A DNA stretch of 64,000 bases from Myxococcota bacterium (GCA_965250285.1 OZ252299.1:4448001-4512000), one strand, 5' to 3'; shown: positions 9,257-36,655, numbered from the stretch's first letter. The notes: a model not told the origin generated them from the sequence alone. Numbers and translations are program-made.

Positions 9257-10279
9257 ATGCCGAGCCCCTCGTTGGCGACCCAGCGCATGACCCCGACGTA
9301 CTTTCGCCTGCTACTGCGAAACCTCGGGTTGCCCCGCGGCCAGATCGAGAAGGCCCTCGCGAGCGTCGAGCTGAGTCCGTCGGTCGTGGCCGATCTCGAT
9401 CGCCCCGTCACGGTGAGTCAGCAGCTCGAGCTCTTCGCGCACCTCGTGCGGCAGCGGCCGGCGGACGGATGGCTGCGCGCCGGTCGGCGTTTTCACGTCG
9501 GCACGCACGGCTCTCTCGGCGTCGCCTTCATGAGCGCGCCCGACGTGAAGACGAGCCTCGAGATCCTCGAGCGCTTCGGACCCGTTCGCCTGCCCTATGC
9601 GCGGCCGCGCACCGCCAGCCTGCGCGGGGGTCGCTACGCGCTCGGGTTCGACGTCACGCCGAAGGTCGATCCGCGCGCGCGGGTCGCCATGATGGAAGTG
9701 ATCGCCGTCGTTCGGAAGCATCTACTCGACGCGGTGACGGGCGAACCGATCTCGGGCGTCACGTTCGAGTTCGACTACCCCGCGCCCCGACACGCATCGC
9801 TGTACGAAGATGAGCTCGGCGTGCCCGTGCGCTTCGACCGCCCGAGAACGGCGATGATCGTCCCCGAGTCGCTGCTTCGCCGGCCCTGCACGACGGCCGA
9901 TGCCGAGATGTTCCGGGCGGCCGTCGAGCGGCTCGAGCGTCGAGCACGCCAGCTCGAGGGCAGCCGACCGCTCGCGGCGCACGTCGAAGAGCTGCTCGAT
10001 TCGGCCGGCGATGCGGGTCTGCCCGTCGACGAAGCCGCACGAGCGCTCGGCATGTCGCGCCGCTCGCTCGCGCGCCACCTGACCGAAGCCGGCACGTCGT
10101 ACCGAGCTTTGCACGACCGACACAGAAGAACCCGTGCCGAGGCGCTGTTGCGCGACTCGAGCCTCGACGTGAACGAGATCGCCTGGCGCCTTGGCTACGG
10201 CAACGCCGCGAACTTCGGTCGCGCGACACGCCGGTGGTTCGGGATGCCGCCCGGGAAGTACCGCCAGTCGATCGAATGA
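9257..10279 (+). CDS. AraC family transcriptional regulator (divergent from the LLM operon)
   Basis: HGSLGVAFMSAP N-domain; C-terminal ARALGMSRRSLARHL and IAWRLGYGNAANFGRATRRWFG HTHs. Start set at in-frame ATG 9257. Confidence 0.9.
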   Translation: MPSPSLATQRMTPTYFRLLLRNLGLPRGQIEKALASVELSPSVVADLDRPVTVSQQLELFAHLVRQRPADGWLRAGRRFHVGTHGSLGVAFMSAPDVKTSLEILERFGPVRLPYARPRTASLRGGRYALGFDVTPKVDPRARVAMMEVIAVVRKHLLDAVTGEPISGVTFEFDYPAPRHASLYEDELGVPVRFDRPRTAMIVPESLLRRPCTTADAEMFRAAVERLERRARQLEGSRPLAAHVEELLDSAGDAGLPVDEAARALGMSRRSLARHLTEAGTSYRALHDRHRRTRAEALLRDSSLDVNEIAWRLGYGNAANFGRATRRWFGMPPGKYRQSIE

Positions 10280-10352
10280 GACTCAATCGGCACACTCATG
10301 TGTCGGTGACGACAGTACGCCGCCGGCAAGGACGCTCTGGCATACTGAATCG

Positions 10353-12767
10353 ATGCGACGACGCGACCCCGAACAGGAATCGTGGCGACCCGGTGCCGCG
10401 CTCGGTGAAGCGACCGATCGCGTCGCCTTCGGGCGCTTCGAGCTGAACGAGGATCGGTCGGAGCTGCGCTGCGACGGCGAGCCCGTGCGGCTCGGCTCGA
10501 AGGCCTTGAGCGTGCTGACCGTGCTGGTCGAACAAGCCGGGCGCTTCGTGGCGAAGGATCAGCTACTCGCGCACGTCTGGCCGAGGACGACGGTCAGCGA
10601 TGCATCGGTCTACACGACGCTCCGTGAGCTGCGGGCCGCGCTTGGCGACGACGGCCGCGGCCAGCAGCTGATCGAGACGAAGCGCGGACGGGGCTATCGC
10701 TTGACGGTTTCGGCGCGACGATCGCCGCCCGACTCGATGAGCATCGCTGAGATCGCAGATCGCTGGACCGAGCGGACGGGGCTCGCGGCGGCCCCGATCC
10801 TCACCGACTCGATCGTTCAGAGAACGAGCGGCCGACCCGAATGGGTCGATGCCTTGATCGAAGGCGTTGCCCAGGAGCGCGCCTCACCGTGGAATGCGGC
10901 GCGCCTCGTGGCGACGACGGCGTTGCCACGTCGTCTCTACGAGCGAGCCGATGAGCGGCTGGCCGGACTCGACCCCGACACGCATCAATTCTTGCGCGCC
11001 GCGGCGACGCTCGGCGGCGCCTTCGAACCCACGGTCGCCCTCGAGCTGGCGGGGGGCCGCGAAGCCGATCTCGACGCGCGGCTCGATGCGGCTTCGACGC
11101 GCGGCTTCATCGAGCCCGATCCCCACGAGCTGCGACGCATGCGGTTCTCCGACCCGAGCCTCGCCGAGGGATTCGCCGCGGGCGAGCCACTCTCGGAGCG
11201 AGCGTCGCTGCACGCCTCGGCGGCGCTGCTGCTCGCAGGTCGCAAAGACGATCGCGAGCTCGGACAACGCGCCGCGCTCCACGCTTTGCGCTCGAATCTC
11301 CCCGCTGCGCGGATCTTCGAGCTCTGCCTCGATGCGGCGCGCGCATCGATCGCCGACGGTGCCAGAGAAGACGGCCTCGTACTGCTCCACGCGGCGGTCA
11401 CCGTCGCGAAGGCCGTCGACGTCGCGGCCCGCTACCAGGCGCTGATCGAGCTCGGCGACGCCCTCTTTCTCACGGGCGATCCCGACTCGGCCCGCAAGCA
11501 ATTCGGCCAAGCAATCGACCTTGCGAACGAACTCGACGACCCGACGCGGCTCGCCGAAGCCACCCTCGGCTTCGCGGGGACGAACAACCACGTCGACACC
11601 GGCCTGGCTTCGACCCATCGCACGCGGCTGATCGAAACGGCGCTCCGACACGCCGACCGCCTGTCGACGTCGCTCGTGGCAGCGCTCCGGGCTCGACTCG
11701 CGCTCGAGCTCGCCTGGGCGCAGCGCCCGACTGAAGCGCGACGCATGGCCGATCTGGCTCGGGCGGCCATCGACCGGGGAGAAGTCTCGGATGCGCTCGC
11801 CTCGCGTGCGCTGCACGACGTGTTCTGGTCGACGTGGTCGCCCGACAACCTCGAAGATCGCATCGCGATCGCGAGCGCGATGCGCGATCGGTCGATGTCG
11901 GCGGGGCAGACCGAGGCGAACGCGATGGCGGTTGCGCTGCATGCCGCCGCCATGCTCGAGCGCGGTGAACGCGTCGAGGCCGATTCGGCGTACCTCTCGG
12001 CCACCGAACGCGTCGGGCCGGATCAGGCCGCGATCGAGCTGCTGCGGTCGGGTCGCGAGGTGTGCATGGCCTTGCTCGAGGGGCGCTTCGACGAGGTCGA
12101 AGGGCTGGCGATCCGTGCACATACGCTCGCTCGAGCGAACGGGTCGGTGAATGCCGACACGATCTACGCCGCCCAGATCGGCTGGCTGCGATTCGACCAG
12201 GGCCGACTCGGTGAGCTCGTGTCGGCCGTGGCGGGCAGCCTCGACGCGCCTCGGTTCGAGCAACGCGCCGGTCGAGCGCTGATCTTCGCCTACGCGGGGC
12301 GCGGCACCGAGGCGCGACGTGAGCTCGACGATCTCGTGGGCCACATCGATGCCATCCCGCGCGATTCGTTCTGGATGGCGACGCTGACGATGCTCATCGA
12401 GATCGCCGCGCATCTCGGCGCCAGCGATGCGGCCGGCGTGCTCTACGAGCGGCTTCTGCCGTATGCCGACCGCGCGGTGCTGCTCGGGATCCGGACGGTG
12501 TGTCGCGGCTCGGCCGAGCTCTATCTCGGGCTGGCCGCCCGCGCGCAAGGTGCGCACGAGCAGGCACAACTGCACTTCGAGCGAGCGGCCCAGGCCAACG
12601 CAAGGCTGCGAGCAGCGCCGCTGCTCGCACGGTCGCTGCTGCTCTGGGCCGATTGCACGGAGCAGCTCGGCGCGAGCGACGCAGTCGACGAGATCGCATC
12701 GGCTCGCGACGAAGCGCAGCGGATCCGCGCGCAGCTCGGCCTCGCAACGCACGCGAGCGCCGACTGA
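10353..12767 (+). CDS. OmpR/CadC-type winged-helix regulator with STAND-like helical/TPR region but no P-loop
   Basis: FGRFEL...LLAHVWP...LRAALGDD...IETKRGRGYRL wHTH followed directly by RTSGRP/LRAAATLG helical region and TPR-like repeats; no Walker A or B seen. Confidence 0.8.
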   Translation: MRRRDPEQESWRPGAALGEATDRVAFGRFELNEDRSELRCDGEPVRLGSKALSVLTVLVEQAGRFVAKDQLLAHVWPRTTVSDASVYTTLRELRAALGDDGRGQQLIETKRGRGYRLTVSARRSPPDSMSIAEIADRWTERTGLAAAPILTDSIVQRTSGRPEWVDALIEGVAQERASPWNAARLVATTALPRRLYERADERLAGLDPDTHQFLRAAATLGGAFEPTVALELAGGREADLDARLDAASTRGFIEPDPHELRRMRFSDPSLAEGFAAGEPLSERASLHASAALLLAGRKDDRELGQRAALHALRSNLPAARIFELCLDAARASIADGAREDGLVLLHAAVTVAKAVDVAARYQALIELGDALFLTGDPDSARKQFGQAIDLANELDDPTRLAEATLGFAGTNNHVDTGLASTHRTRLIETALRHADRLSTSLVAALRARLALELAWAQRPTEARRMADLARAAIDRGEVSDALASRALHDVFWSTWSPDNLEDRIAIASAMRDRSMSAGQTEANAMAVALHAAAMLERGERVEADSAYLSATERVGPDQAAIELLRSGREVCMALLEGRFDEVEGLAIRAHTLARANGSVNADTIYAAQIGWLRFDQGRLGELVSAVAGSLDAPRFEQRAGRALIFAYAGRGTEARRELDDLVGHIDAIPRDSFWMATLTMLIEIAAHLGASDAAGVLYERLLPYADRAVLLGIRTVCRGSAELYLGLAARAQGAHEQAQLHFERAAQANARLRAAPLLARSLLLWADCTEQLGASDAVDEIASARDEAQRIRAQLGLATHASAD

Positions 12768-12798
12768 CCGCCCATGTGGGCGACACACCGACGCGTCT

Positions 12799-12825
12799 CT
12801 CAGCGAAAACTCAGGTTCGCCTCAG
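12799..12825 (+). promoter_or_regulatory. Three CTCAG direct repeats at 11-bp period; candidate winged-helix regulator binding site
   Basis: CTCAG at 12799, 12810 and 12821, between the regulator and the downstream gene. Confidence 0.55.
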
Positions 12826-12924
12826 ATTCGGGCTGCCAACATCTCTCGGTGACGGCCGCAGGTGACCCGACGAGGTCCTCCGGTCGTGCGTCCGACGCGC
12901 GGTTCACGACTGAGGGATCGAGAG

Positions 12925-14736
12925 ATGAATGCACACAGCCTGTCGAGAGGCACCGAGATTCGGCTCTCACCCATGCCAAGGCCGCGCGCCAGGTGGGCGC
13001 ATTCCGCGACTCGATCCCCGCGCTGGGTCCCGACCGTCATCGCGGCGGTCTGGATCGGGCTCTCGCCGATGGCGTCGGCGCAGACCGTGCTCTATCACAG
13101 CCCGGCCGACGACGGCGCTGCAGCGACGGAGCCCGCCCTCGTCCCGGCCGGATCCTCGGCCTCTCTCTATCTGTACTGGGCGTCGGGACCGGCCGCGTCG
13201 AGTGCGGCCGAGGAGGTCTGCTCCGCGGGAGACGGGGACGAGATCTGCGCCGGGCAGATCGAGCTGCGCGCGGAGGGGTCGTTCTCGATCGACGCCTTCA
13301 CCCCCGATGCCGCGGCCAACATCGTCTTCGCCGCGTCGCCCACGAGCCTCTCGATCAACGTGCTCGACCCGATCGGGCCCACGCCCGGCGTGAAACGGCT
13401 CGGGCAGCTCGACGTCACGACCGATCTCTCCACCGACTGCACGGCCACCGCGTGCGAGGTCGTCGTGGACCAGTTCGACGTCGTCGAGGCCGACCTCGCC
13501 ATCGCCGCGGGGAGCTTCACGACGCCCACGAGTGCCATCGCGGTTCCAGAGCCCGGGCTGCCCCTGGCCTTCGGCTTCGGCGTCGCCCTGCTCTCTCTAT
13601 TGGCGCGAAGGCGGCGACACGGTGTCAGGAACATCGTCGCAACGACCTTCATCGCGTCGAGCGCGACCCTCATCGCCGTCACCCCCGCCGAAGCCCAGCT
13701 GGAGGTGCTCGAAGACGCGCACTACATCACACGCTGCGCCGGTTCGGAACGGGACCTCCCCGTCGCGAACACGTCGTTCTGCGATCGGCCGAGGGCGTAT
13801 GCCTGGACCGGGCCCCAGGGCGTGTCGATGGCGAGCGGCGAGGCGGTCGTCTCGGCCGAAGCGTTCTCGAGCCGTCCCCGGATCCCGAAGGGCATCCCCG
13901 AAGAGCTCGCTTTGCGATTGCAGCCCCTCCTGGCCGAGCCCTTCGTCGCAATCGCGTTCGTCCAGGCGTCGGCGACCTACGAGACGAGCGGCCCCTTCAA
14001 TCCCCCGCCCGGCGGCACCGGCTTCAACTCGATCGCGATCGACGGCACGGCCGCGGTCGAGGCGACCTTCACCGTGCGACAGAAGGCCACCCCACCCATC
14101 GCAACGACGGTCGTTCCGCTGCGTCTTCGCGTCTTGGGCGAGATGACCATCAATGGCGTCGGCAACACCCAGGGTACCTTTCGGGTCACCGTCAACGGCG
14201 ACGTCGACAACGCGTTCGAGTTCATCCAGTCGGCGACCGGCTTCTACAGCGTGAACAGCGAGTTCCCGGGCGAGATCTTCGAGATCGAAGTCGGGCAGAC
14301 CTTCATCAAGCTGGTGCAGTGCTCGGCCGAAGCCCGCTGGCCCGGCGTCCCCGGCTTCTGCTCAGCCGTGCTCGACCCCATCATCGAGCTCGACCAGGAG
14401 ACCACCGATGCGCTCCTCGGCCCCAACACCTTTCCCCTCGCCGACTACTTCGAGATCGAGTACAGCGAGAACTTTCTGACCGACGCGCCGGCGAACATCT
14501 GCGGCGACGTCACCCTCGACGAGTTCGTGCTCGAATCCGACCTCGACCTTCTTCGGCAGAGCTTCATCGGCCAGGCCAGCCTCTCGGCCGATGCACTCGA
14601 TCGCTGCGCGACGCGCGCCGAGTCGACCGGCTGCGACCTCGCCGACGCCGTCGTCCTCGCTCGCACGGTGCAGGGCGGCGCCGCGCCGCGGGCGCCGGGG
14701 ATCGCGCCCGCCTGTGCCGCCGTCACGAGCCCATGA
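12925..14736 (+). CDS. Secreted protein with internal PEP-CTERM, second signal peptide and C-terminal dockerin-like domain
   Basis: Signal ...IGLSPMASA|Q (13081); VPEP at 13543 + TM + RRRR; then IVATTFIASSATLIAVTPAEA|Q (13696); C-terminal CGDVTLD...DLDLLR...CDLADAVVLAR. GAGGGA upstream of ATG 12925. Confidence 0.8.
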   Translation: MNAHSLSRGTEIRLSPMPRPRARWAHSATRSPRWVPTVIAAVWIGLSPMASAQTVLYHSPADDGAAATEPALVPAGSSASLYLYWASGPAASSAAEEVCSAGDGDEICAGQIELRAEGSFSIDAFTPDAAANIVFAASPTSLSINVLDPIGPTPGVKRLGQLDVTTDLSTDCTATACEVVVDQFDVVEADLAIAAGSFTTPTSAIAVPEPGLPLAFGFGVALLSLLARRRRHGVRNIVATTFIASSATLIAVTPAEAQLEVLEDAHYITRCAGSERDLPVANTSFCDRPRAYAWTGPQGVSMASGEAVVSAEAFSSRPRIPKGIPEELALRLQPLLAEPFVAIAFVQASATYETSGPFNPPPGGTGFNSIAIDGTAAVEATFTVRQKATPPIATTVVPLRLRVLGEMTINGVGNTQGTFRVTVNGDVDNAFEFIQSATGFYSVNSEFPGEIFEIEVGQTFIKLVQCSAEARWPGVPGFCSAVLDPIIELDQETTDALLGPNTFPLADYFEIEYSENFLTDAPANICGDVTLDEFVLESDLDLLRQSFIGQASLSADALDRCATRAESTGCDLADAVVLARTVQGGAAPRAPGIAPACAAVTSP

Positions 14737-15038
14737 GGCGAGCCGCCCGGTCTTGCGATGACGTATTCGTCGAGTCTTCGCCACGATGAACTCGACACCG
14801 GCTGAACCCGCACGTCGCGGACGGGGGTGAATGCCGCCGCGCGACGGGCACTACTCGCCTTCGCGTGACGAAACCGAGGCGCGGTGTCATCCGAAGCGCA
14901 GCCCTCCCCATCTGAGCGGCGTGCGATCTCCACACTCGAACGACGTTCCTTCATGGCGCTTCCACCAGGAAGTCATGTCGCATCTCTAGGCTCGGGGCGT
15001 TTCGGTCGTGAACCCCCACCCCAAGCGAGGTCGATGCC

Positions 15039-16583
15039 ATGTCGAGTCCCAGCTCAGTTCCCGGTTTGAACCGGCGCACCTTCCTGCGCGCCTCCGCGAT
15101 CGGCGCCGCGAGCCTGGCGGCACCGCTCGGCAGCCTGCAGGCGCGTCAGCACAAGGGCTGGCGCCCCGACTTCGCAAACGGCTACGGGCCACTCTTTCCC
15201 ACGATCGACGAAACCACCGGCCTGCCCCTGCTGAAGCTGCCCAAGGGCTTTCGGTACCGCAGCTTCGGGTGGACGGGCGACGTCATGTCGGACGGCACGC
15301 TCACGCCCGACCGACACGACGGCATGGCGGTCGTCGACGTGGGCTGGAGCCGCAAGGAGGGGCTCGTCCTCACGATGATCCGAAATCACGAACGCGGCGC
15401 CGCCGAAGCGGGCAACCCGCTGCCCTTCGTGGGCGACGGCCTGGCGCCCGTGTACGACGAGTTCACCCTCCCCGGTCTCATCGACGGCATCGGCGGCGGT
15501 ACGACGGCGGTTCGCTATAGCGTGTTCAAGCGCTCGTTCATCGGCGACGAAGCCACGCTCGGCGGGACGCTCACCAACTGTGCGGGTGGACCCACGCCCT
15601 GGCGCTCGTGGCTCACGTGCGAAGAAGTGACGATTCGCGGCTCGGCGATCGGCGCACGCGATCACGGCTATGTCTTCGAGGTGCCCTCGCCTCGCGCGGG
15701 CGCGGCGACGGCGGTGCCCATCACCGACATGGGCTTCATGGATCACGAAGCCGTGGCCGTCGATCCCCACACCGGCTTCGTCTATCTCACAGAAGACAAC
15801 GGACCGAGCTGCGGGTTCTACCGCTACCGCCCGCACGAGCGTCCCAAGCGCCCGGGCGACCTCGAGCGCGGCGGCGTGCTCGAGATGCTCAAGGTCGTGG
15901 GCGTCGAGAACGCCGACCTGCGCGACGTGGCGCCGGGCGAAGAGTTCGACGTCGAATGGGTAGTCATCGACGACCCCGATGCCGACCCCGAGGCCTTCGC
16001 GTCGCCCGACCCGGGCTTCCCGCCGATCGAGGGTTCGGGCCGCTCGGGCCCGTTCCTTCAGGGCGAGGCGGCCGGCGGCGCGGTCTTCCGACGGGGCGAA
16101 GGCTGCTGGTACAAGAACGACGTGATCTACTTCGTCGACACGAGCGGGGGCGTCGCGGGCAAGGGCAGCGTGTTCGCCCTCCGCCTGCCCAAGGATCCGG
16201 TGAACGGCATCGGCCGACTGCGGGCGCTCTTCGTCTCGCCCGACGAGGAGACCGCCGACAACCCCGACAACATCACCGTCTCGCCCCGCGGCGGCCTCGT
16301 GCTCTGCGAAGACGGCGGCGGCCAGGTCATCGACGGCGAGCGGACGTTCGGCGCCCGGCTGCTCGGGGTGAATCGACGGGGGGAGTCGTTCGTGTTCGCC
16401 GAGAACAACGTCGTCATCGAGAGCGCTCTCGACGACAAGCCCTTCATCCTGCCCGAAGACTACCGCGGCAGCGAGTTCGCGGGCGCCACGTTCTCACCGT
16501 TCGGGTTCACGCTGTTCGTCAACATCCAGACGCCCGGGATCACCTTCGCCATCGATGGTCCGTGGTGGAAGGGCGGGCTCTGA
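15039..16583 (+). CDS. phoX: PhoX family (DUF839) alkaline phosphatase, Tat-exported
   Basis: Tat motif NRRTFL; HDGM, RNHE, NCAGGPTPW..WLTCEE, DNPDNI, LCEDG, SEFAGATFSP, FVNIQTPG. Confidence 0.88.
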   Translation: MSSPSSVPGLNRRTFLRASAIGAASLAAPLGSLQARQHKGWRPDFANGYGPLFPTIDETTGLPLLKLPKGFRYRSFGWTGDVMSDGTLTPDRHDGMAVVDVGWSRKEGLVLTMIRNHERGAAEAGNPLPFVGDGLAPVYDEFTLPGLIDGIGGGTTAVRYSVFKRSFIGDEATLGGTLTNCAGGPTPWRSWLTCEEVTIRGSAIGARDHGYVFEVPSPRAGAATAVPITDMGFMDHEAVAVDPHTGFVYLTEDNGPSCGFYRYRPHERPKRPGDLERGGVLEMLKVVGVENADLRDVAPGEEFDVEWVVIDDPDADPEAFASPDPGFPPIEGSGRSGPFLQGEAAGGAVFRRGEGCWYKNDVIYFVDTSGGVAGKGSVFALRLPKDPVNGIGRLRALFVSPDEETADNPDNITVSPRGGLVLCEDGGGQVIDGERTFGARLLGVNRRGESFVFAENNVVIESALDDKPFILPEDYRGSEFAGATFSPFGFTLFVNIQTPGITFAIDGPWWKGGL

Positions 16584-29771: not shown

Positions 29772-32417
29772 ATGTGGCGCATCGGTCCGTATCGACTCGA
29801 CCCATCGACGTTCACGCTCGACCGAGACGGCGAGCCGATCGCGCTGCAGCGTCGCCCCTACGATCTCCTCTTGTATCTCGTTGCCCACAGCGACCGAGTC
29901 GTCTCGCGCGACGAGCTGTTGCGAGAGGTGTGGGGTGGCATATCGGTCGCTTCGGGCGCGGTGAGCACGGCCGTGTACGAGGTTCGAGCCGCGCTCGGCG
30001 ATCTCGAGCGACCGCGCGACGAACGCTTGATCGAGACGATCCGCGGGCGGGGCTTCCGTTTTCGCGGATCGGGTCAGGTGACCGAGGCAGACCGACCGAA
30101 CCACGACGCCCTGCCCTTCATTGGCCGCGGTCGAGTGCTCGATCGCTTGCGTACGCGGCTCGAAGCCGCGCGACGCGGTCGCGGCGGCGCCCTCGTGGTC
30201 GAGGGGCGCGCCGGGATCGGCAAGACCCGCGTCCTCCAGGAGCTCGTCGGAGAGTTGAGCGGCTTCGCGATCGAGACGGTGCACTGCGAGCCCGGTGCGC
30301 CTCCGCTCTGGCCTTGGACGCAGCTGCGGCAATCGCTCGGACACGCCGACGCCGTCGCATCGCCCGTCGAGCTCGACGAGGCAGAAGACGACGCCCGCCT
30401 GCACTTCGAGCGCATCGGGCGCTACGCGGAGCTGCTCGGCGAGGCGTCGCTCGCGCATCCCGTCGTCGTCCTGATCGAGGATCTTCACTGGGCCGATCCA
30501 TCTTCGCGTGCCGTCCTCGAATCGCTCGCACCGCGCCTCTCAAATGAGCGCGTGCAGATCATCGCGACCGAGCGAAGCGAAGGCGACCGCGAGCCCGAGG
30601 GCGAGCGCGTCGGATCGAGTCGGGTGGAGCGGGTTCGTTTGAGCGCACTTCGAACGACGCAGCTCTACCCCTTCATCGAGTCGATCCTAGGAAGAATCCC
30701 GTCGCCCGAGCTCGTCGGATGGATCGAGCGCCACAGCCAGGGCATTCCACTGATGGTCCGCGAGCTCGCCGAGCGCGTCTCGATCGAAGGCGAGTCATTG
30801 ATCGATGTGCCTCGAATCGCCGGGCTCGTCTTCGCCCATCGTTTCGATCGGCTCGACGCGACCTCTCGACTGGCGATCGGGGTCGCGTCGCTCTGCGGGA
30901 TCCGGTTCGACGCGCCGCTGGTCGAAGCCGCCGCGGGCGATGCCCTCCCCGCCGATCGTGTGTGGATTCGCGAGGGCCTGCAGTCGGGCATCCTCGTCCA
31001 CGTCACGGGACATCCGCTGCGCTTCGCGTTTCGTCATGCGCTGCTGAGGGACGCGGCCGAGAGCATGCTCGAAGCGACATCGGTGTCGGGCTGGCATCGG
31101 CGGCTGGCGTCGGCGATCGAGCGAGGGAGGCCCGAGCCGGTCGGATCGACGCTGTCGCAACTCGCCCGCCACTCAGCCGCCGCGGCCGTCGAGCAGGCCG
31201 ATGTGAGCGGCCCGCTCCACTACGCTCTGCTCGCGGCGCAACGCGCTGCCCGTGTGTTCGAGTGGGCCGAGGTCGCGACCCACACGGCTCACGCACTGAG
31301 CTGGATCGAGTATGCCCCCCCTGGCCTCGATCGCGATCGCCAGGAGATCGAAGCAGCGCTCCTGCGCTGCGCAGCGATCGCTTCGTCCACCGGCCACGTC
31401 GAAGAGACCGCCGCGTTGCTCGAGCGAATCGACCCCCTCCTGCCACGATGCGGCGCCCCGTGGGCGCGCGGCGCGGCGGAGGCGTTCCAGTTCTCGAACG
31501 CGAGATGCGTCGGTGACTACGATCGCGCCTGGCAAGCCATCGAGGTGATCGAGCTTCAGCCCGAGCTCGCACGGGTCGCCGACTGTTGGCGACGCACGCT
31601 CACCGTCGCGACGGGCGACTTCTCTCCGTCGGCCGACGACGCGGACTGGGGCGCACGCCTGCCGCTCGACCCCGAGTTCCACGCGTTCGCTCGGCTCTCG
31701 GGGCGAGATCCCGGGATCGACCGATTGGGGCACGTCGCGCTCGCACACTTCGCGCGCGGCGAAGATGCGCGGGCCGTCGCCTGCGCCGAGCGTGCGGTGG
31801 CCTGGGCCGATGCGAGCGGCGACGCCCGCGGACGCATCTGGGCGCTCTTCCTCTTGTGCACGGTGCACGAGATGCGTCGCGACTGGGGCGAGCTTCGACG
31901 CCTCGCGCCCGAGATCGATCAGGCGGGCCGACGGACCGGGCTGAGCGCCTGGCTCGGCGTGGGGGCCGGGTTTCGGCTCTGGGCCGAGGCACGCGAGAAG
32001 GGCGATCCAAGCCCGGCGCTCATGCCGCTTGCGCGGATCCTTCACGACCGCGGCCGATCGACGAGCACCACCCTGACGACCCCTCTCCTGCTCTTCGCGA
32101 GCCGGGTGTTCAGCTGGAGCGGCGCGCACGAAACCGCTGCACGCGTGGCGCGCGAGGGCATCGCGTGGGTCGAACGCACGGGGGAGCACATGGTCTCGGC
32201 CGAGCTGTACCGGCAGCTCGGCCACGCCCTCGATCGAGGCGCTGCGCCCGAGGAGGCCGCCGCGGCCAGGCGGCGCGGCATCGAGCTCGCGCGCCGGCAA
32301 GGTCACGTCGTCAGCGAAGCCCGAGGCCTGCGCGATCGCCAGCGGGCCGGCGTCGCCACGCCGACCGAGCTGACCCGCCTGCTCGAGCTCGAAGAGACGC
32401 CTCCGGCAGAGACGTAG
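29772..32417 (+). CDS. Winged-helix + AAA/STAND ATPase + TPR-like transcriptional regulator
   Basis: wHTH (SRDELLREVW...IETIRGRGFRF), FIGR, Walker A GRAGIGKT, Walker B LIEDLHWAD, FAFRHALLRD. Confidence 0.88.
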   Translation: MWRIGPYRLDPSTFTLDRDGEPIALQRRPYDLLLYLVAHSDRVVSRDELLREVWGGISVASGAVSTAVYEVRAALGDLERPRDERLIETIRGRGFRFRGSGQVTEADRPNHDALPFIGRGRVLDRLRTRLEAARRGRGGALVVEGRAGIGKTRVLQELVGELSGFAIETVHCEPGAPPLWPWTQLRQSLGHADAVASPVELDEAEDDARLHFERIGRYAELLGEASLAHPVVVLIEDLHWADPSSRAVLESLAPRLSNERVQIIATERSEGDREPEGERVGSSRVERVRLSALRTTQLYPFIESILGRIPSPELVGWIERHSQGIPLMVRELAERVSIEGESLIDVPRIAGLVFAHRFDRLDATSRLAIGVASLCGIRFDAPLVEAAAGDALPADRVWIREGLQSGILVHVTGHPLRFAFRHALLRDAAESMLEATSVSGWHRRLASAIERGRPEPVGSTLSQLARHSAAAAVEQADVSGPLHYALLAAQRAARVFEWAEVATHTAHALSWIEYAPPGLDRDRQEIEAALLRCAAIASSTGHVEETAALLERIDPLLPRCGAPWARGAAEAFQFSNARCVGDYDRAWQAIEVIELQPELARVADCWRRTLTVATGDFSPSADDADWGARLPLDPEFHAFARLSGRDPGIDRLGHVALAHFARGEDARAVACAERAVAWADASGDARGRIWALFLLCTVHEMRRDWGELRRLAPEIDQAGRRTGLSAWLGVGAGFRLWAEAREKGDPSPALMPLARILHDRGRSTSTTLTTPLLLFASRVFSWSGAHETAARVAREGIAWVERTGEHMVSAELYRQLGHALDRGAAPEEAAAARRRGIELARRQGHVVSEARGLRDRQRAGVATPTELTRLLELEETPPAET

Positions 32418-32596: not shown

Positions 32597-34480
32597 ATGG
32601 CGCCCAGCGAAGCAGATCCCACCACCCCGGCGACGGCCGACTCTCGCCCCGCGTGGGGACGGGTCGTCGGGCTCGTCGTGGCGATCTTCGGGTTCGTCTG
32701 CGCCAGCCCCTCCGTCGCGCAGGAGATCGTGCGCGCGTCCCCCGATGTGACGATCCCCATTGGCGCCGCAGCCGTGGTCACGCGCGACGATCAGGTCGCC
32801 GTCGACGACCGTCTCGGCGCCGTCACGGCCGACGTACTCGTCGGCATCCCCGAGACCGCGGCGATCGCGGCCTTCTCTCGCGTCGGCGCGTCGTACGCCG
32901 TGGCCTTCGAGACGCAGACCCAGCTGCCGGGCGGGCTCATCGCCGACCCGGCCGACGTCGTCGTCTACGATGCGCTCAACGCGGCCTACAAGATCTTCTT
33001 CGACGGCTCGGGCCTGCCGCTCGGCACCCGGGTCGATGCGGTCTCGTTCGCCGGAAGCGCGCTGCTTCTGTCGTTCGGCGAGCGCACGAACCTGGGATTC
33101 ATCGTCGACGACGAAGACGTCGTTCGCTGGGACGGGAGCTTCTATACGCTCGCCTTCGATGGCTCGGCGGCGGGCCTCGATCCGGCCGTCGACACCGACG
33201 CGGTTCAGATGCTCGGACCGAATACACTGCTGTTGAGCTTCGACATCACGGGCGCGGTGGGCGGCATCGTGTTTCGCGATGAAGACGTGATGCGCTTCGA
33301 AGACGGTGTATGGAGCCTCGAGTACCAGGCGGCGGCCAGCGAGCCGAGCTGGATCGCGGCCGACCTCGACGCCATGACCGTGCCCGAGCCAACGACGGGG
33401 CCGCTCTTCGTGGCCGGCTTCGCTTCGCTCGCGGCAATGGCCGCGCGCAGACGGCGGCGCCGGGGCCCCGTTGCTGTGACGTGCACGCTGGCGATCGCGG
33501 CGCTGACCCTGGGCCCCGCCACAGGGGCCGGCGCGAGCGAGGGACGCCTCGAAATCAACCACACCTGCGCCACGCAGACGGGCTGCGGCGCGGGCGACAC
33601 GCCGGGCTATCCGGTCACGATCACGAGCGCGAGTCGGCGCAGCATCGTGCTGACGAGCAACCTCGTCGTACCCGACGCATCGACGACCGCCATCGACATT
33701 CTGGTCAGCGACGTCACGGTCGACCTCGCAGGCTTCTCGATCCTGCGCAGCGGCTGCGAAGGCGCGACGGCGAGCTGCACGGATACGTCGGCGAGCAACG
33801 CCGGCATCCGCGCCATCGGCTCTCCCAGTCCGAGCATCGAGCTGTACGGCTTCCGGGTGTACGGCGGCAGCGCCATCGGCTTCAGCGACGGGGTCGTGCT
33901 CGGGTACGCATCCGAGATTTCGAACGTGCGCGCACGTTGGAACCGCTTCTCGGGCATCGGAACGATCGGGTACGGCGGCCTGCTCTTCGACAACACGACG
34001 CTCGAGAACCCCGAGTTCGGCGTCACTACCGGAACGTTCGGGCCCAGTGTCGCGATCGGCAATCGAACCCATCAGAACGGTGTCGGCCTCATCGGGACTG
34101 GCAGTGCCCTGGTGCTGGCCGACAACGTCGGGTTCGAGAACAGCGTCGGCGGCTTTTCGACGAGCACGTCGACCAGCGTATTCGTGTCGAATACGAGCTA
34201 CGGCAATGCGGGCAACGGGCTCACCGTCTCGCCCGGCGAAGCCGCGATCTTCGAAGTGAATACGGTCTACGACAACACAGACGGGATCTTCGGTGGCGAC
34301 GGCACCCTCGCGCGGGGCAACGTGGCGCGGAACAACTCGGGCATTGGCATCCGACTCGGCCCGGACGGTGGCTATCGCGAGAACGTCCTGACGAACAACG
34401 CGGGGGGCCAAGTGAGCTCGGGGATCAACCTCGGCGACAACGCCTGCTCGGGGCCATCGGGGGTGGCGCCATGTCCGTGA
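32597..34480 (+). CDS. Secreted protein: repeat domain + internal PEP-CTERM + second signal peptide + right-handed beta-helix domain
   Basis: AGGAGA RBS; signal ...FVCASPSVA|Q (32720); VPEP at 33380 + TM + RRRRRR; GPVAVTCTLAIAALTLGPATGAGA|SEGRLEINHTC (33536); N-x-x-x-x-N-x-x-x-G repeats. Confidence 0.85.
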   Translation: MAPSEADPTTPATADSRPAWGRVVGLVVAIFGFVCASPSVAQEIVRASPDVTIPIGAAAVVTRDDQVAVDDRLGAVTADVLVGIPETAAIAAFSRVGASYAVAFETQTQLPGGLIADPADVVVYDALNAAYKIFFDGSGLPLGTRVDAVSFAGSALLLSFGERTNLGFIVDDEDVVRWDGSFYTLAFDGSAAGLDPAVDTDAVQMLGPNTLLLSFDITGAVGGIVFRDEDVMRFEDGVWSLEYQAAASEPSWIAADLDAMTVPEPTTGPLFVAGFASLAAMAARRRRRRGPVAVTCTLAIAALTLGPATGAGASEGRLEINHTCATQTGCGAGDTPGYPVTITSASRRSIVLTSNLVVPDASTTAIDILVSDVTVDLAGFSILRSGCEGATASCTDTSASNAGIRAIGSPSPSIELYGFRVYGGSAIGFSDGVVLGYASEISNVRARWNRFSGIGTIGYGGLLFDNTTLENPEFGVTTGTFGPSVAIGNRTHQNGVGLIGTGSALVLADNVGFENSVGGFSTSTSTSVFVSNTSYGNAGNGLTVSPGEAAIFEVNTVYDNTDGIFGGDGTLARGNVARNNSGIGIRLGPDGGYRENVLTNNAGGQVSSGINLGDNACSGPSGVAPCP

Positions 34481-35529
34481 GCCATCTCGAAGCGGCTCCG
34501 CGCGCCCGTTCTCCGTTCGGCCGACGGGGCGGGTATCGCGCCGCTCTGCTCGCCTTCGCCCTCTTCATGGCGGGCAGCGATCGTGCCTTCGCGAGCGACG
34601 GATTGGTCGAGCTCGACCAGCTGTGTGCCGTTCATTCGGGCTGCATGGCGGGCGACACGCCGGGCTTCCCGATCACAATCACCGGCGCAGGGGGCCGCAG
34701 CTTCATCCTGACGACCAACCTCATCGTGCCGGGCGGCGGGACCAATGCGATCTCGATCGACGCAACCGACGTCTCGATCGATCTGAACGAGCACACGATT
34801 CTGCGTTCGGAGTGCGTCGGCGCCACGACCGACTGCAGCAGCACCGCGTTCGGTGCGATCGCGATCGTACAGACAGCGCCGGCGGCAGCCGCTGGCGGTG
34901 CGACCGTCCGAGATGGGCGGATCCTGGGTTTCGGGCAAGGCCTGCTTCTCGGTCGGGGTGCGGAGGTTCGCAACGTCGTCACGCGATGGATTCGCGGCGC
35001 CGGCATCTCTTCGCGCGGTCACGGCACGCTCCTATTCAGCAACACCGTGGATCAGTGCTTCGGGAGCCTGCTCGCGAACAGCATCGATCCGGGCGGGGTG
35101 GCGATCGGCAATCGCGTTTCGGGCGGTGCGAGCTTTGGCTTCGCGGTGAACCAACCGGGCATCGTCGTCGTCGACAACGTCGCGCTCGAGAACGGCGCGG
35201 TCGGGCTCTTGGCCAGTGAAAGCGCAGTGATGGTCGACAACGTCGCCCAGGGGAACACGACGTACGGCCTGACCGCCGACGAAGGCTCGGTCGTCATTCG
35301 AAACACCGCCCATGACAACGACCAGGGGGGCCTGTTCGTACAGGGCGGCTCTCTGGTCCGAGGCAACGTCGCACGCAGCAGCTCGATCGGCCCGGGCATC
35401 ACGGCAGCCGCACCGACGGGCCAGGGGCATCTGGAGAACGTCTCGAGCAACAACGCCGGCGGCGACGTCGTGGGCCCGCGCGTCGACCTGGGTGCCAATG
35501 CATGTGGCGGAACACCCGGGTGCCCCTGA
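34471..35529 (+). CDS. Secreted right-handed parallel beta-helix protein (paralog 2)
   Basis: Signal ...ALLAFALFMAGSDRAFA|SDGLVELDQLC...GDTPGFPITI; ends DLGANACGGTPGCP; start overlaps upstream stop (ATG 34471 or GTG 34477). Confidence 0.85.
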   Translation: MSVSHLEAAPRARSPFGRRGGYRAALLAFALFMAGSDRAFASDGLVELDQLCAVHSGCMAGDTPGFPITITGAGGRSFILTTNLIVPGGGTNAISIDATDVSIDLNEHTILRSECVGATTDCSSTAFGAIAIVQTAPAAAAGGATVRDGRILGFGQGLLLGRGAEVRNVVTRWIRGAGISSRGHGTLLFSNTVDQCFGSLLANSIDPGGVAIGNRVSGGASFGFAVNQPGIVVVDNVALENGAVGLLASESAVMVDNVAQGNTTYGLTADEGSVVIRNTAHDNDQGGLFVQGGSLVRGNVARSSSIGPGITAAAPTGQGHLENVSSNNAGGDVVGPRVDLGANACGGTPGCP

Positions 35530-35647
35530 CACAGCGCCCACCCCGACGGAAAGGGGTCACGCCGATCCGCCGAACGAAACGACGCGCAGAAGCGAAGAGC
35601 AGCGAGACGAGACGCAGCGAAGAGCGTGCCCGAAGGAGAAGCCGAAG

Positions 35648-36655
35648 ATGACGCAGAACCGCACCCGACCCACCTCGCTCGCGGCGGCCCTGGCCGCCGC
35701 GAGCCTCGGCGTCGCACTGTACGCGCCGTCGGCGGCGGCGCTCGACGGTCGCTTCGAGCTGAATCAGCTGTGCGCGACCGTCACCGGCTGCATTCAGGGC
35801 GACACGCCCGGCTTTCCCATCACGCTGACGGTGGCGGCAACGGCTGGCTACGTCTTGACGAGCGAACTCGTCGTCCCCGACGCGAATACCTCGGCGATCG
35901 TGATCTCGGCGAACGACGTGCACATCGACCTGAACGGGTTTCGCATCGTTCGCAGCGGGTGCGAGAACGCCGTCGCCACGTGTGAAGCCGCGAGCGGATC
36001 GGGCGATGGCATCGGCGTCGACGACTTCTCGCTTCGACGCGGAACGAGCGTGACGAACGGCAACGTCGTCGGGATGGGCCGATACGGACTGCTCCTGGGC
36101 CCGCAGGCCCATGTGACGCACATTCAGGCGCGTTGGAATCGTCTCGAGGGCATCGCCGTGAACGAGAGCGGGCGCGTGCATCGCGTTCGCTCGATCGAGA
36201 ATGGAGGCGCGGGGATCTCGGTCGCCAGCGGCTCGACGGTGTCGGAAAGTGCAGCCGTCGGAAACGGCGGCGCCGGCATCTTCACCGCGACGGGATGCCA
36301 CGTCGTCCGCAACGTCGCCTGGGACAATGACGCTCAGGGCATCCGCAGTACGACCGGCTCGGTGATCCGACACAACGCCGTCGGCGACAACGGCAACATC
36401 GCGGGCATCCAGGCCGCCGCTTCCACCGTGGCGGGCAACGCCGTTGCGAACCAATCGGGCGGGCCGGGCATTCTCGCGACGACCGGCTCGATGGTCGAGT
36501 CGAATGCGATCACCGATACGGCCCTCGGCAGCGAAGGGCTCTCGCTCGGAGACGCGGGCTACCGTGGCAACGTGCTGACCGACAACCCCACTGGCCATGT
36601 CACGGGCGGAATCAACCTGGGCGCGAACGCCTGCGACGGAGTGCTCTGCCCCTAG
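35648..36655 (+). CDS. Secreted right-handed parallel beta-helix protein (paralog 3)
   Basis: AAGGAG RBS; signal ...LYAPSAAA|LDGRFELNQLC...GDTPGFPITL; ends NLGANACDGVLCP. Confidence 0.88.
   Translation: MTQNRTRPTSLAAALAAASLGVALYAPSAAALDGRFELNQLCATVTGCIQGDTPGFPITLTVAATAGYVLTSELVVPDANTSAIVISANDVHIDLNGFRIVRSGCENAVATCEAASGSGDGIGVDDFSLRRGTSVTNGNVVGMGRYGLLLGPQAHVTHIQARWNRLEGIAVNESGRVHRVRSIENGGAGISVASGSTVSESAAVGNGGAGIFTATGCHVVRNVAWDNDAQGIRSTTGSVIRHNAVGDNGNIAGIQAAASTVAGNAVANQSGGPGILATTGSMVESNAITDTALGSEGLSLGDAGYRGNVLTDNPTGHVTGGINLGANACDGVLCP

Follow-up and report, generated by a model that had tools for sequence, protein, structure and literature searches.

Several described systems each share part of the layout reported here. 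The envelope precursors of flaviviruses and alphaviruses, and FbcH of Bradyrhizobium, carry an anchor helix, a basic loop and a following signal on one chain that is cut by signal peptidase. Single-cohesin anchoring proteins attach by SLH or LPXTG. In substrates of the PEP-CTERM/exosortase system, the sorting tag lies near the C-terminus "virtually without exception" according to the available text of Haft et al. (2006, PMC1569441), and how these proteins cross the outer membrane is described as undefined in the accessible part of a further report (PMC12188702). Internal sorting signals are on record elsewhere; as far as the available text of the reports goes, Haloferax volcanii HVO_0405 has a central sorting signal that arose by gene fusion and is cut by the exosortase homologue ArtA (PMC7157517, PMC6098224), and Myxococcus xanthus MXAN_5598 has an internal tag in a proposed fusion of TraA-like and TraB-like parts, of which the front half is proposed to be anchored (PMC11980579). 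According to the consulted excerpt of PMC5244752, it is not known what part cohesins and dockerins play when they occur apart from cellulosomes.

The window analyzed here is a stretch of 64,000 nucleotides from a Myxococcota genome (single contig, 6.25 Mb, 68.6% GC). It contains an ORF, P0001, in which elements of these systems stand on one chain, and a second ORF, P0002, with the same type of junction. Their features are as follows, in positions of the window.

12925..14736, + strand: polyprotein ORF P0001, 603 aa, internal stops 0
12925..13080, + strand: signal peptide 1, putatively of Sec/signal peptidase I type, with a long basic n-region and an ASA↓Q end; same position in relatives
13081..13542, + strand: domain 1, 154 aa, predicted cohesin fold (AlphaFold2 model and Foldseek)
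13543..13617, + strand: internal PEP-CTERM, with VPEP, a hydrophobic helix and RRRR, called from sequence
13618..13695, + strand: signal peptide 2, for which the Arg cluster also forms the n-region; T-P-A-E-A↓Q end; aligns with the P0153 signal
13696..14493, + strand: cargo domain, 266 aa, without known family
14494..14733, + strand: dockerin-like module with four conserved Cys (family profile and model)
32597..34480, + strand: second ORF with internal PEP-CTERM and signal 2, P0002; repeat domain, then beta-helix cargo

The likely start of P0001 is ATG 12925 (in-frame alternatives are GTG 12862 and ATG 12973), the SPMASA↓Q boundary of signal 1 falls at 13080/13081, and the part after signal 2 comprises 346 aa with the dockerin-like module at its end. 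An earlier note had described the end of signal 1, a domain of about 150 aa, an internal PEP-CTERM, a second signal and a part of about 345 aa, and each was found at the place given for it; the 603-codon frame is open throughout and holds no stop at the junction, as the note had said. Its statement that P0001 has no visible similarity to the 32597 protein was also borne out (best BLASTP E 0.14). P0001 resembles other PEP-CTERM/exosortase substrates (TIGR02595, PF07589) in its N-terminal signal, PEP motif, helix and basic cluster and in the presence of exosortases in the genome. Unlike them, it continues for 372 residues downstream of the Arg cluster, which places the tag mid-chain, and the tag runs directly into a second signal. 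The P0001 tag scored 13.7 bits against TIGR02595, under the curated cut-off of 16, and that of P0002 passed with 23.4 bits. A scan of window 12700-15100 for promoters and terminators found none.

An assembly error, or a stop lost in a single strain, would also produce such a frame. A stop or indel near 13620 was looked for in Logan contigs of three runs (X1, X2 and X3) and none was found; each contig spans the P0001 junction without a single difference or gap, and contigs of X1 and X2 also span the 32597 junction without difference. Because all three runs belong to one study and X1 is possibly the source sample, their agreement excludes an error of this assembly rather than a strain-specific mutation. 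Both are refuted by the existence of fused orthologues at 56% identity, and with 45 fused loci in the family this explanation is scarcely credible. The earlier note had argued against a one-off lost stop, and this is supported: the junction occurs seven times in the genome and is in frame in orthologues with approximately 35-40% junction identity.

For domain 1, an AlphaFold2 model was obtained with a pLDDT of 94.2, and the top 10 Foldseek matches to this model were cohesins only (E 9.4e-5). Comparison with 6kge_A gave Z 12.5 and rmsd 2.9 over 124 aligned residues, and rows 1-28 were cohesin entries only; the adhesin CLIPPER domain reached Z 10.8 in the same comparison, which re-ranks the Foldseek matches and is not independent of them. 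At the sequence level, no Pfam cohesin match was seen in 71 family members at E <= 0.05, nor did domain 1 match any PDB sequence. The family has a near-invariant Cys pair (C47 and C56 of the domain). Domain 1 is predicted to adopt a cohesin (beta-sandwich) fold, type I-like.

The C-terminal module gave sequence matches as well as structural ones. Its family profile matched type I dockerins with E 1.6e-7 (5nrk_B), and Pfam Dockerin_1 (PF00404) matched 19 of 55 family members at E <= 0.05, P0001's own copy being without a match. The top Foldseek rows for the modelled module were all dockerins, with rmsd mostly 1.4-2.5 and E values that were all above 0.001 (best 0.029). Helices in the model span residues 17-27, 35-40 and 52-64, corresponding to two loop-helix segments and a short joining helix; the family consensus does not have two canonical calcium loops, the second one being degenerate and Cys-bridged. 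On the basis of the family profile and the predicted model, the last module of P0001 is a dockerin homologue. Leave-one-out profiles recovered every left-out cohesin (E 4e-8 to 9e-14) and, among the matches listed, at least one of the three dockerins that had been withheld (E 1.7e-11).

Between signal 2 and this module, the cargo domain (13696-14493) had no Pfam match and gave only weak leads, to unnamed clusters, in the Atlas. It has three relatives: the fused P0152 (an orthologue of P0001, 596 aa, 56% identity) and P0154, and the stand-alone P0153. Two fused family members bear the source label Myxococcota bacterium. The rear half of the cargo has weak matches in three other genomes, in terminal PEP-CTERM proteins (E 3e-12 to 4e-6). 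That a terminal PEP-CTERM replaces the dockerin in these weak homologues, and that a dockerin stands at the end in place of the tag in L131, a member of the 32597 family, is a hint that the dockerin serves as a tether.

Modelling of domain 1 together with the dockerin-like module gave an ipSAE of 0.72, compared with 0.02 for the best of three controls; 116/157 solved complexes attain the ipSAE mark, compared with 2/215 mismatched pairs. Contact agreement between runs was at least 93%, partner pLDDT was at least 61, and dockerin helices 1 and 3 lay against a cohesin sheet face. As cohesin–dockerin complexes of this kind have already been solved, the value of 0.72 shows likeness to them rather than measured binding. 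Conservation was not clearly higher in predicted interface columns than in others (0.46 versus 0.37 in the cohesin, 0.44 versus 0.45 in the dockerin). We predict from the model that domain 1 and the dockerin-like module bind each other. The earlier note had missed this predicted pairing, which would give the fusion a specific job. Cohesin and dockerin similarity across unrelated cargos correlated with rho 0.36 (1141 pairs) and, with one member per cluster, with a median rho of 0.29 (p approximately 0.015 at the median, up to 0.30); being weak and confounded by kinship, it was dropped as evidence for pairing.

In its predicted cohesin fold P0001 resembles single-cohesin anchoring proteins with type I dockerin partners (OlpA and OlpC, in complexes 3ul4 and 4dh2; C. 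acetobutylicum 6kge; A. fulgidus 2xdh). It also resembles them in the model's packing of helices 1 and 3 of the dockerin against the sheet face, and in what would be one anchored socket per tagged protein. It differs from them in sequence (6-15% identity), in its Cys-rich modules, its PEP-CTERM and its diderm host, and in having socket and plug on one chain; the cargos of its family are FG-GAP, GDSL, RHS, VWD or without known family, and not cellulases. A cellulosome is also a poor comparison, as the genome has three single cohesins and no multi-cohesin scaffoldin.

The genome-wide count of internal and terminal PEP-CTERMs that the earlier note had proposed was then carried out. A loose pattern scan gave 91 matches, 17 of which had more than 60 aa downstream; requiring at least three basic residues and removing by eye five matches that were not PEP-CTERMs left 81, comprising 74 terminal and 7 internal. 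A compact second signal directly follows the tag in six of the seven internal cases, and in the seventh (C1:961096) a longer linker containing ATGs intervenes. Domain 1 and the Cys-rich C-terminal module are common to three of the seven, P0001 included, and profiles built from relatives found exactly three cohesins and three such dockerins in the genome, all in these three ORFs, of which the two besides P0001 are at C1:470092 and C1:2967803. Thus 3/3 cohesins are fused, versus 4/78 of the other PEP-CTERMs, the three being paralogues and not independent cases. The genome also has six exosortase (PF09721) matches above cut-off, a signal peptidase I gene and GspD.

Among the other internal-tag ORFs, the largest member seen (L001:1543-15738, − strand; G000:C1:456539-470737) has the same layout, with an FG-GAP-type repeat cargo of approximately 4,460 aa and a terminal dockerin. 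Two are without a cohesin: L003 (G000:C1:1404321-1410746) has a YD repeat before the internal PEP-CTERM and signal 2 and an RHS-type protein after them, and L004 (G000:C1:2850730-2852523) consists of two PEP-CTERM proteins in series, the second with a terminal tag. A gene for a Trans_reg_C-type winged helix lies directly before three of the seven (window 10191-12767 and 29772-32417; G000:C1:2966366-2966887); 14 such frames occur in the genome, and they are found at only two of the relatives' cohesin loci. Elsewhere, at G000:C1:5181095-5182263 (− strand), a small secreted protein that is nearly all dockerin (Pfam) is encoded immediately upstream of a PEP-CTERM protein with a terminal tag, and paralogues of the latter are clustered in the vicinity; the two may be a second, unrelated cohesin–dockerin pair.

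A profile built from 3 sequences detected the cohesin in 38/67 genomes of the family, and one built from 71 sequences detected it in 85/225 genomes of the class, spread over 7 families. The locus set was made up of all 70 non-self family matches of the 3-sequence profile, and the 74 cohesin matches include, in addition, the genome's own three. Their ORFs continue for more than 150 aa in 46 cases and are terminal in 23; three lie at contig edges and two are without a PEP tag. Under a hydropathy rule, 44 of the 46 long ORFs have a second signal with a cleavage site. L104, which is without a second signal, was dropped afterwards, leaving 45 fused loci, and L087, counted as terminal, is in fact a fused junction interrupted by Ns, leaving 22 true terminal ones. 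A dockerin is present in the same ORF in 35 of the 46. Of the 22 true terminal cohesins, 17 have a dockerin gene within the stretch retrieved; it lies upstream in 11 loci, downstream in 5 and on the opposite strand in 1. In the 32597 family, for which stretches were shorter, a dockerin gene was found at 1 of 29 loci. The architecture, its conservation and the linkage of cohesin to dockerin are matters of direct observation. The order is anchor-first in 45 fused and 5 split loci; cargo-first pairs number 11, and all are split. The earlier note had raised the prospect of orthologues that are always split into two genes. They are not, as P0152, P0154 and 12/12 orthologues with a GDSL cargo are fused, but split relatives do exist.

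Fused cohesin members fall into ten cargo clusters, and Pfam domains in the scanned examples were FG-GAP, GDSL, RHS, VWD and DUF4082; no glycoside hydrolase was found by Pfam in 12 cohesin-family or cargo proteins. From outside the family, 20 loci were hand-picked from the matches with long frames favored, and 9 of them, all from one further family, show the fusion together with a compact second signal; a more distant family contributed five loci, which have no tag and resemble cohesin–thrombospondin–dockerin adaptors. In the global library, the cohesin profile found 580 clusters at 50% identity. The best 150 of these 580 representatives, a sample that leans toward the training family and contains P0001 itself, comprise 86 short terminal forms, 40 fused forms with a second signal (30 with a dockerin), 5 with tails of 62-99 aa and no second signal, and 19 without a tag by pattern. 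Whenever a cohesin-PEP protein among these 150 had more than 100 aa downstream, a second hydrophobic signal was present (40/40). Pattern scans, which were too insensitive to define the range, returned one locus in genome contigs and none in metagenome contigs. The predicted layout is common to dozens of related genomes.

Variants of the layout were also seen. In L067, L071, L076, L170, L171, L173 and L174, an FG-GAP-type domain is fused directly ahead of the cohesin and another FG-GAP-type cargo comes after signal 2; the two would form an anchored propeller pair. In L050, L077, L078, L091 and L105 the cohesin and cargo are fused, and the dockerin occupies a separate overlapping ORF, through either a conserved split or a frameshift. 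P0104, P0073, P0117 and L179-L183 have a cohesin without PEP-CTERM, then thrombospondin type 3 repeats and a dockerin; they are adaptor-like, a call made with Pfam for P0104 (labelled Gammaproteobacteria) and mostly by eye for the others.

The junction itself was best followed in the GDSL-cargo orthologues, which come from three genera and in which it is in frame in all 12. Mean identity is approximately 40% in the junction versus 72% in the cargo, and the junction has nine different lengths. With sites placed by the conserved cargo start, Ala occupies position −1 in 12/12 and Ala or Ser position −3 in 12/12, giving [AS]-x-A before a conserved Q-D. The PEP tripeptide is intact in 45/45 fused junctions, whose loops together hold 256 K/R versus 13 D/E, in line with the positive-inside rule. 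Pro is found near the putative cleavage site in 30/45. P0153, the stand-alone cargo orthologue, has an N-terminal signal peptide that aligns with signal 2 of P0001, both ending A↓Q; in its genome (G078) the gene immediately before it encodes a terminal PEP-CTERM protein from another family, and no cohesin of the P0001 type was found within 14 kb. The internal signal appears suited to signal peptidase I, with a basic n-region, an h-region and small residues at −3 and −1. Re-export by the Tat pathway was considered and rejected, as no Tat-like motif was found in the 45 junctions.

Signal 2, called with our own hydropathy rule rather than a trained predictor, has a median of 7 strongly hydrophobic residues, compared with 8 for the PEP-CTERM helix, and an uncharged span of 18. 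With a hydrophobicity close to that of the first helix, it could remain in the membrane, and P0001 might then be an uncut or partly cut membrane protein: a hairpin with clasped periplasmic arms, or a cohesin kept by its own helix. Such a product would agree with a tag under the TIGR02595 cut-off and with the suggestion, in the available text of Haft et al. (2006, PMC1569441), that long-tailed examples may be non-functional; exosortase action on an internal PEP-CTERM was not found in the literature examined. We nevertheless consider it unlikely, given that A-x-A↓Q persists in all 12 orthologues despite divergence of the junction to 40% identity, that no fused junction has lost its PEP motif and that signal 2 matches the ordinary N-terminal signal of P0153. 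In a covalent hairpin, moreover, the dockerin clasp would be largely redundant.

Separate translation of the cargo, from TTG 13600 in P0001 or from an ATG in the 32597 gene, would make each locus two overlapping in-frame genes. A start at TTG 13600 would give a protein beginning M-A-R-R-R-R-H and thus a well-formed, normal signal peptide, and an in-frame start codon of some kind is present in 29/45 junctions, P0001 included. The other 16 have none, and a Shine-Dalgarno-like word was found in only 3/45. TTG 13600 has no such word of at least 4 bases upstream, so there is no start supported by a ribosome-binding site, as the earlier note had held. Starts near the helix end are not commoner in fused ORFs (23/46) than in terminal ones (14/23), and with no stop in the frame the cohesin would still be made as a long chain. 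Candidate internal starts are neither conserved nor enriched, and this reading is very improbable.

The reading that we favor, with a probability of roughly 65%, is that processing of the chain yields a cohesin anchored by an exosortase and a separate dockerin-tagged cargo, which the cohesin would capture one to one and keep at the cell envelope. Signal 1 would take the cohesin through Sec, and the PEP-CTERM helix would halt transfer with the Arg loop remaining cytoplasmic; signal 2 would then re-enter Sec, the cargo would be exported, and signal peptidase I would cleave at A-x-A↓Q. By analogy with archaeosortase, the exosortase would cleave at PEP and join the cohesin to some acceptor, and the dockerin is predicted by the model to bind the cohesin. 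The cohesin–cargo pair might then be carried to the surface, perhaps via type II secretion, a speculative step suggested by the presence of GspD and by MYXO-CTERM proteins (PMC11980579). Type II surface delivery, like the joining of the cohesin to a lipid or some other acceptor, is put forward by analogy only.

How the fused layout arose was considered from gene order and from the cohesin tree. In the genome, 8 of the 74 terminal PEP-CTERM genes (one of the eight looks spurious) are a single stop loss or frameshift away from a fused layout, because they are packed tightly against the next gene. The cohesin tree places fused and split sisters with the same cargo together (L047 with L041/L042, 0.98; L088 with L092, 0.90); the alignment is short, with weak deep support, and too weak for counting fusion events. 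The packed neighbors and these sisters suggest that the junction is a product of repeated fusion rather than a mobile linker. The earlier note had argued for a reusable linker, a view that finds no support in that form: the junctions share a grammar and no sequence, and each resembles the fusion of an anchor gene with the signal of the next gene. The layout probably arose several times by fusion of anchor-first gene pairs and was then kept.

Whether the fused state brings a benefit is a separate matter. It may be selected for cognate pairing, the lineage using the chain as a standard display device that is threaded twice through Sec and cut by both enzymes, like a viral polyprotein, to give a private pair at 1:1 with cargos of up to approximately 4,500 aa; this proposal is tentative, and we rate its chances as somewhat short of even. 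Fusion is not obligatory, as the 86 short terminal forms among the best 150 representatives make plain. The fusion could alternatively be a tolerated accident, with the products of a split operon and no benefit, a view that is compatible with cutting and departs from our best explanation solely in denying selection for the fused state. It would recur only because anchor genes overlap the next signal peptide, 8 of the 74 terminal ones being one mutation away, and once the second start is lost it may be hard to undo; the interleaving of fused and split members on the weakly supported cohesin tree, the stand-alone cargo orthologue in G078 and the mostly split 32597 family all fit. Accident sits less easily with fusion in every GDSL orthologue and throughout a large FG-GAP-type cargo group across two families, or with the fusion of 45/50 anchor-first cohesin loci, set against 4/78 of the other PEP-CTERMs of the genome. 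On balance it is distinctly unlikely.

The 32597 family marks the low extreme of fusion frequency and the cohesin family the high one. P0002 was searched by profile for a cohesin or dockerin, and none was found. The loci of 29 relatives are mostly split and include three compact fusions and one long linker with its own Met. Downstream of P0002, at window 34480-36655, follow two stand-alone beta-helix paralogues of its cargo, each with a signal peptide of its own that stops at the same point as the internal one. Such stand-alone beta-helix genes are often found in relatives next to the front domain of the 32597 protein, possibly as a second anchor–cargo pair.

Cutting at a central tag is known in archaea and proposed in Myxococcus; what is new, as far as searched, is a putatively anchored, predicted cohesin and a dockerin-bearing cargo in one ORF. 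The literature examined gave no description of a PEP-CTERM with a dockerin or of the combined one-ORF layout, and subscription papers and supplements may mention such proteins. HVO_0405 differs in being a strain-specific fusion to a NifU-domain gene and an archaeal Tat substrate; the available text on it mentions no second signal or binding pair, whereas the P0001-type fusion is conserved across genera. In the accessible account of MXAN_5598, a single proposed case, the tag is of MYXO-CTERM/myxosortase type, there is no cohesin or dockerin, and a second signal is unmentioned. In the viral and FbcH polyproteins the first helix is not sortase-type, whereas the P0001 tag is itself likely to be removed and its products are predicted to rejoin through the cohesin–dockerin pair.

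If the favored scheme is true, a sorting tag classed as "C-terminal" is functional in the middle of a chain, as a feature conserved in bacteria, and its Arg anchor also serves to begin a second export signal. The scheme would connect two open questions, the role of PEP-CTERM proteins and that of cohesins and dockerins outside cellulosomes, and the fusion would name a predicted binding partner for a family of cohesins (580 clusters) that escapes Pfam. With the tag in a central position, cutting would change the product's length by hundreds of residues, and this offers an easy gel read-out of a bacterial exosortase, much as HVO_0405 has served for archaeosortase. Annotation treats such ORFs as single proteins, and caution is needed there.

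Two minor observations concern the locus itself. The gene downstream of P0001 (window 15039-16583) encodes a PhoX alkaline phosphatase (Pfam PF05787) with a twin-arginine-like signal, and no tie to the polyprotein was seen. Gln is very often the first residue after both signals (window 13081 and 13696, and in many relatives), which may mean pyroglutamate capping, an idea for Gln-starting mature chains that comes from Bacteroidota.
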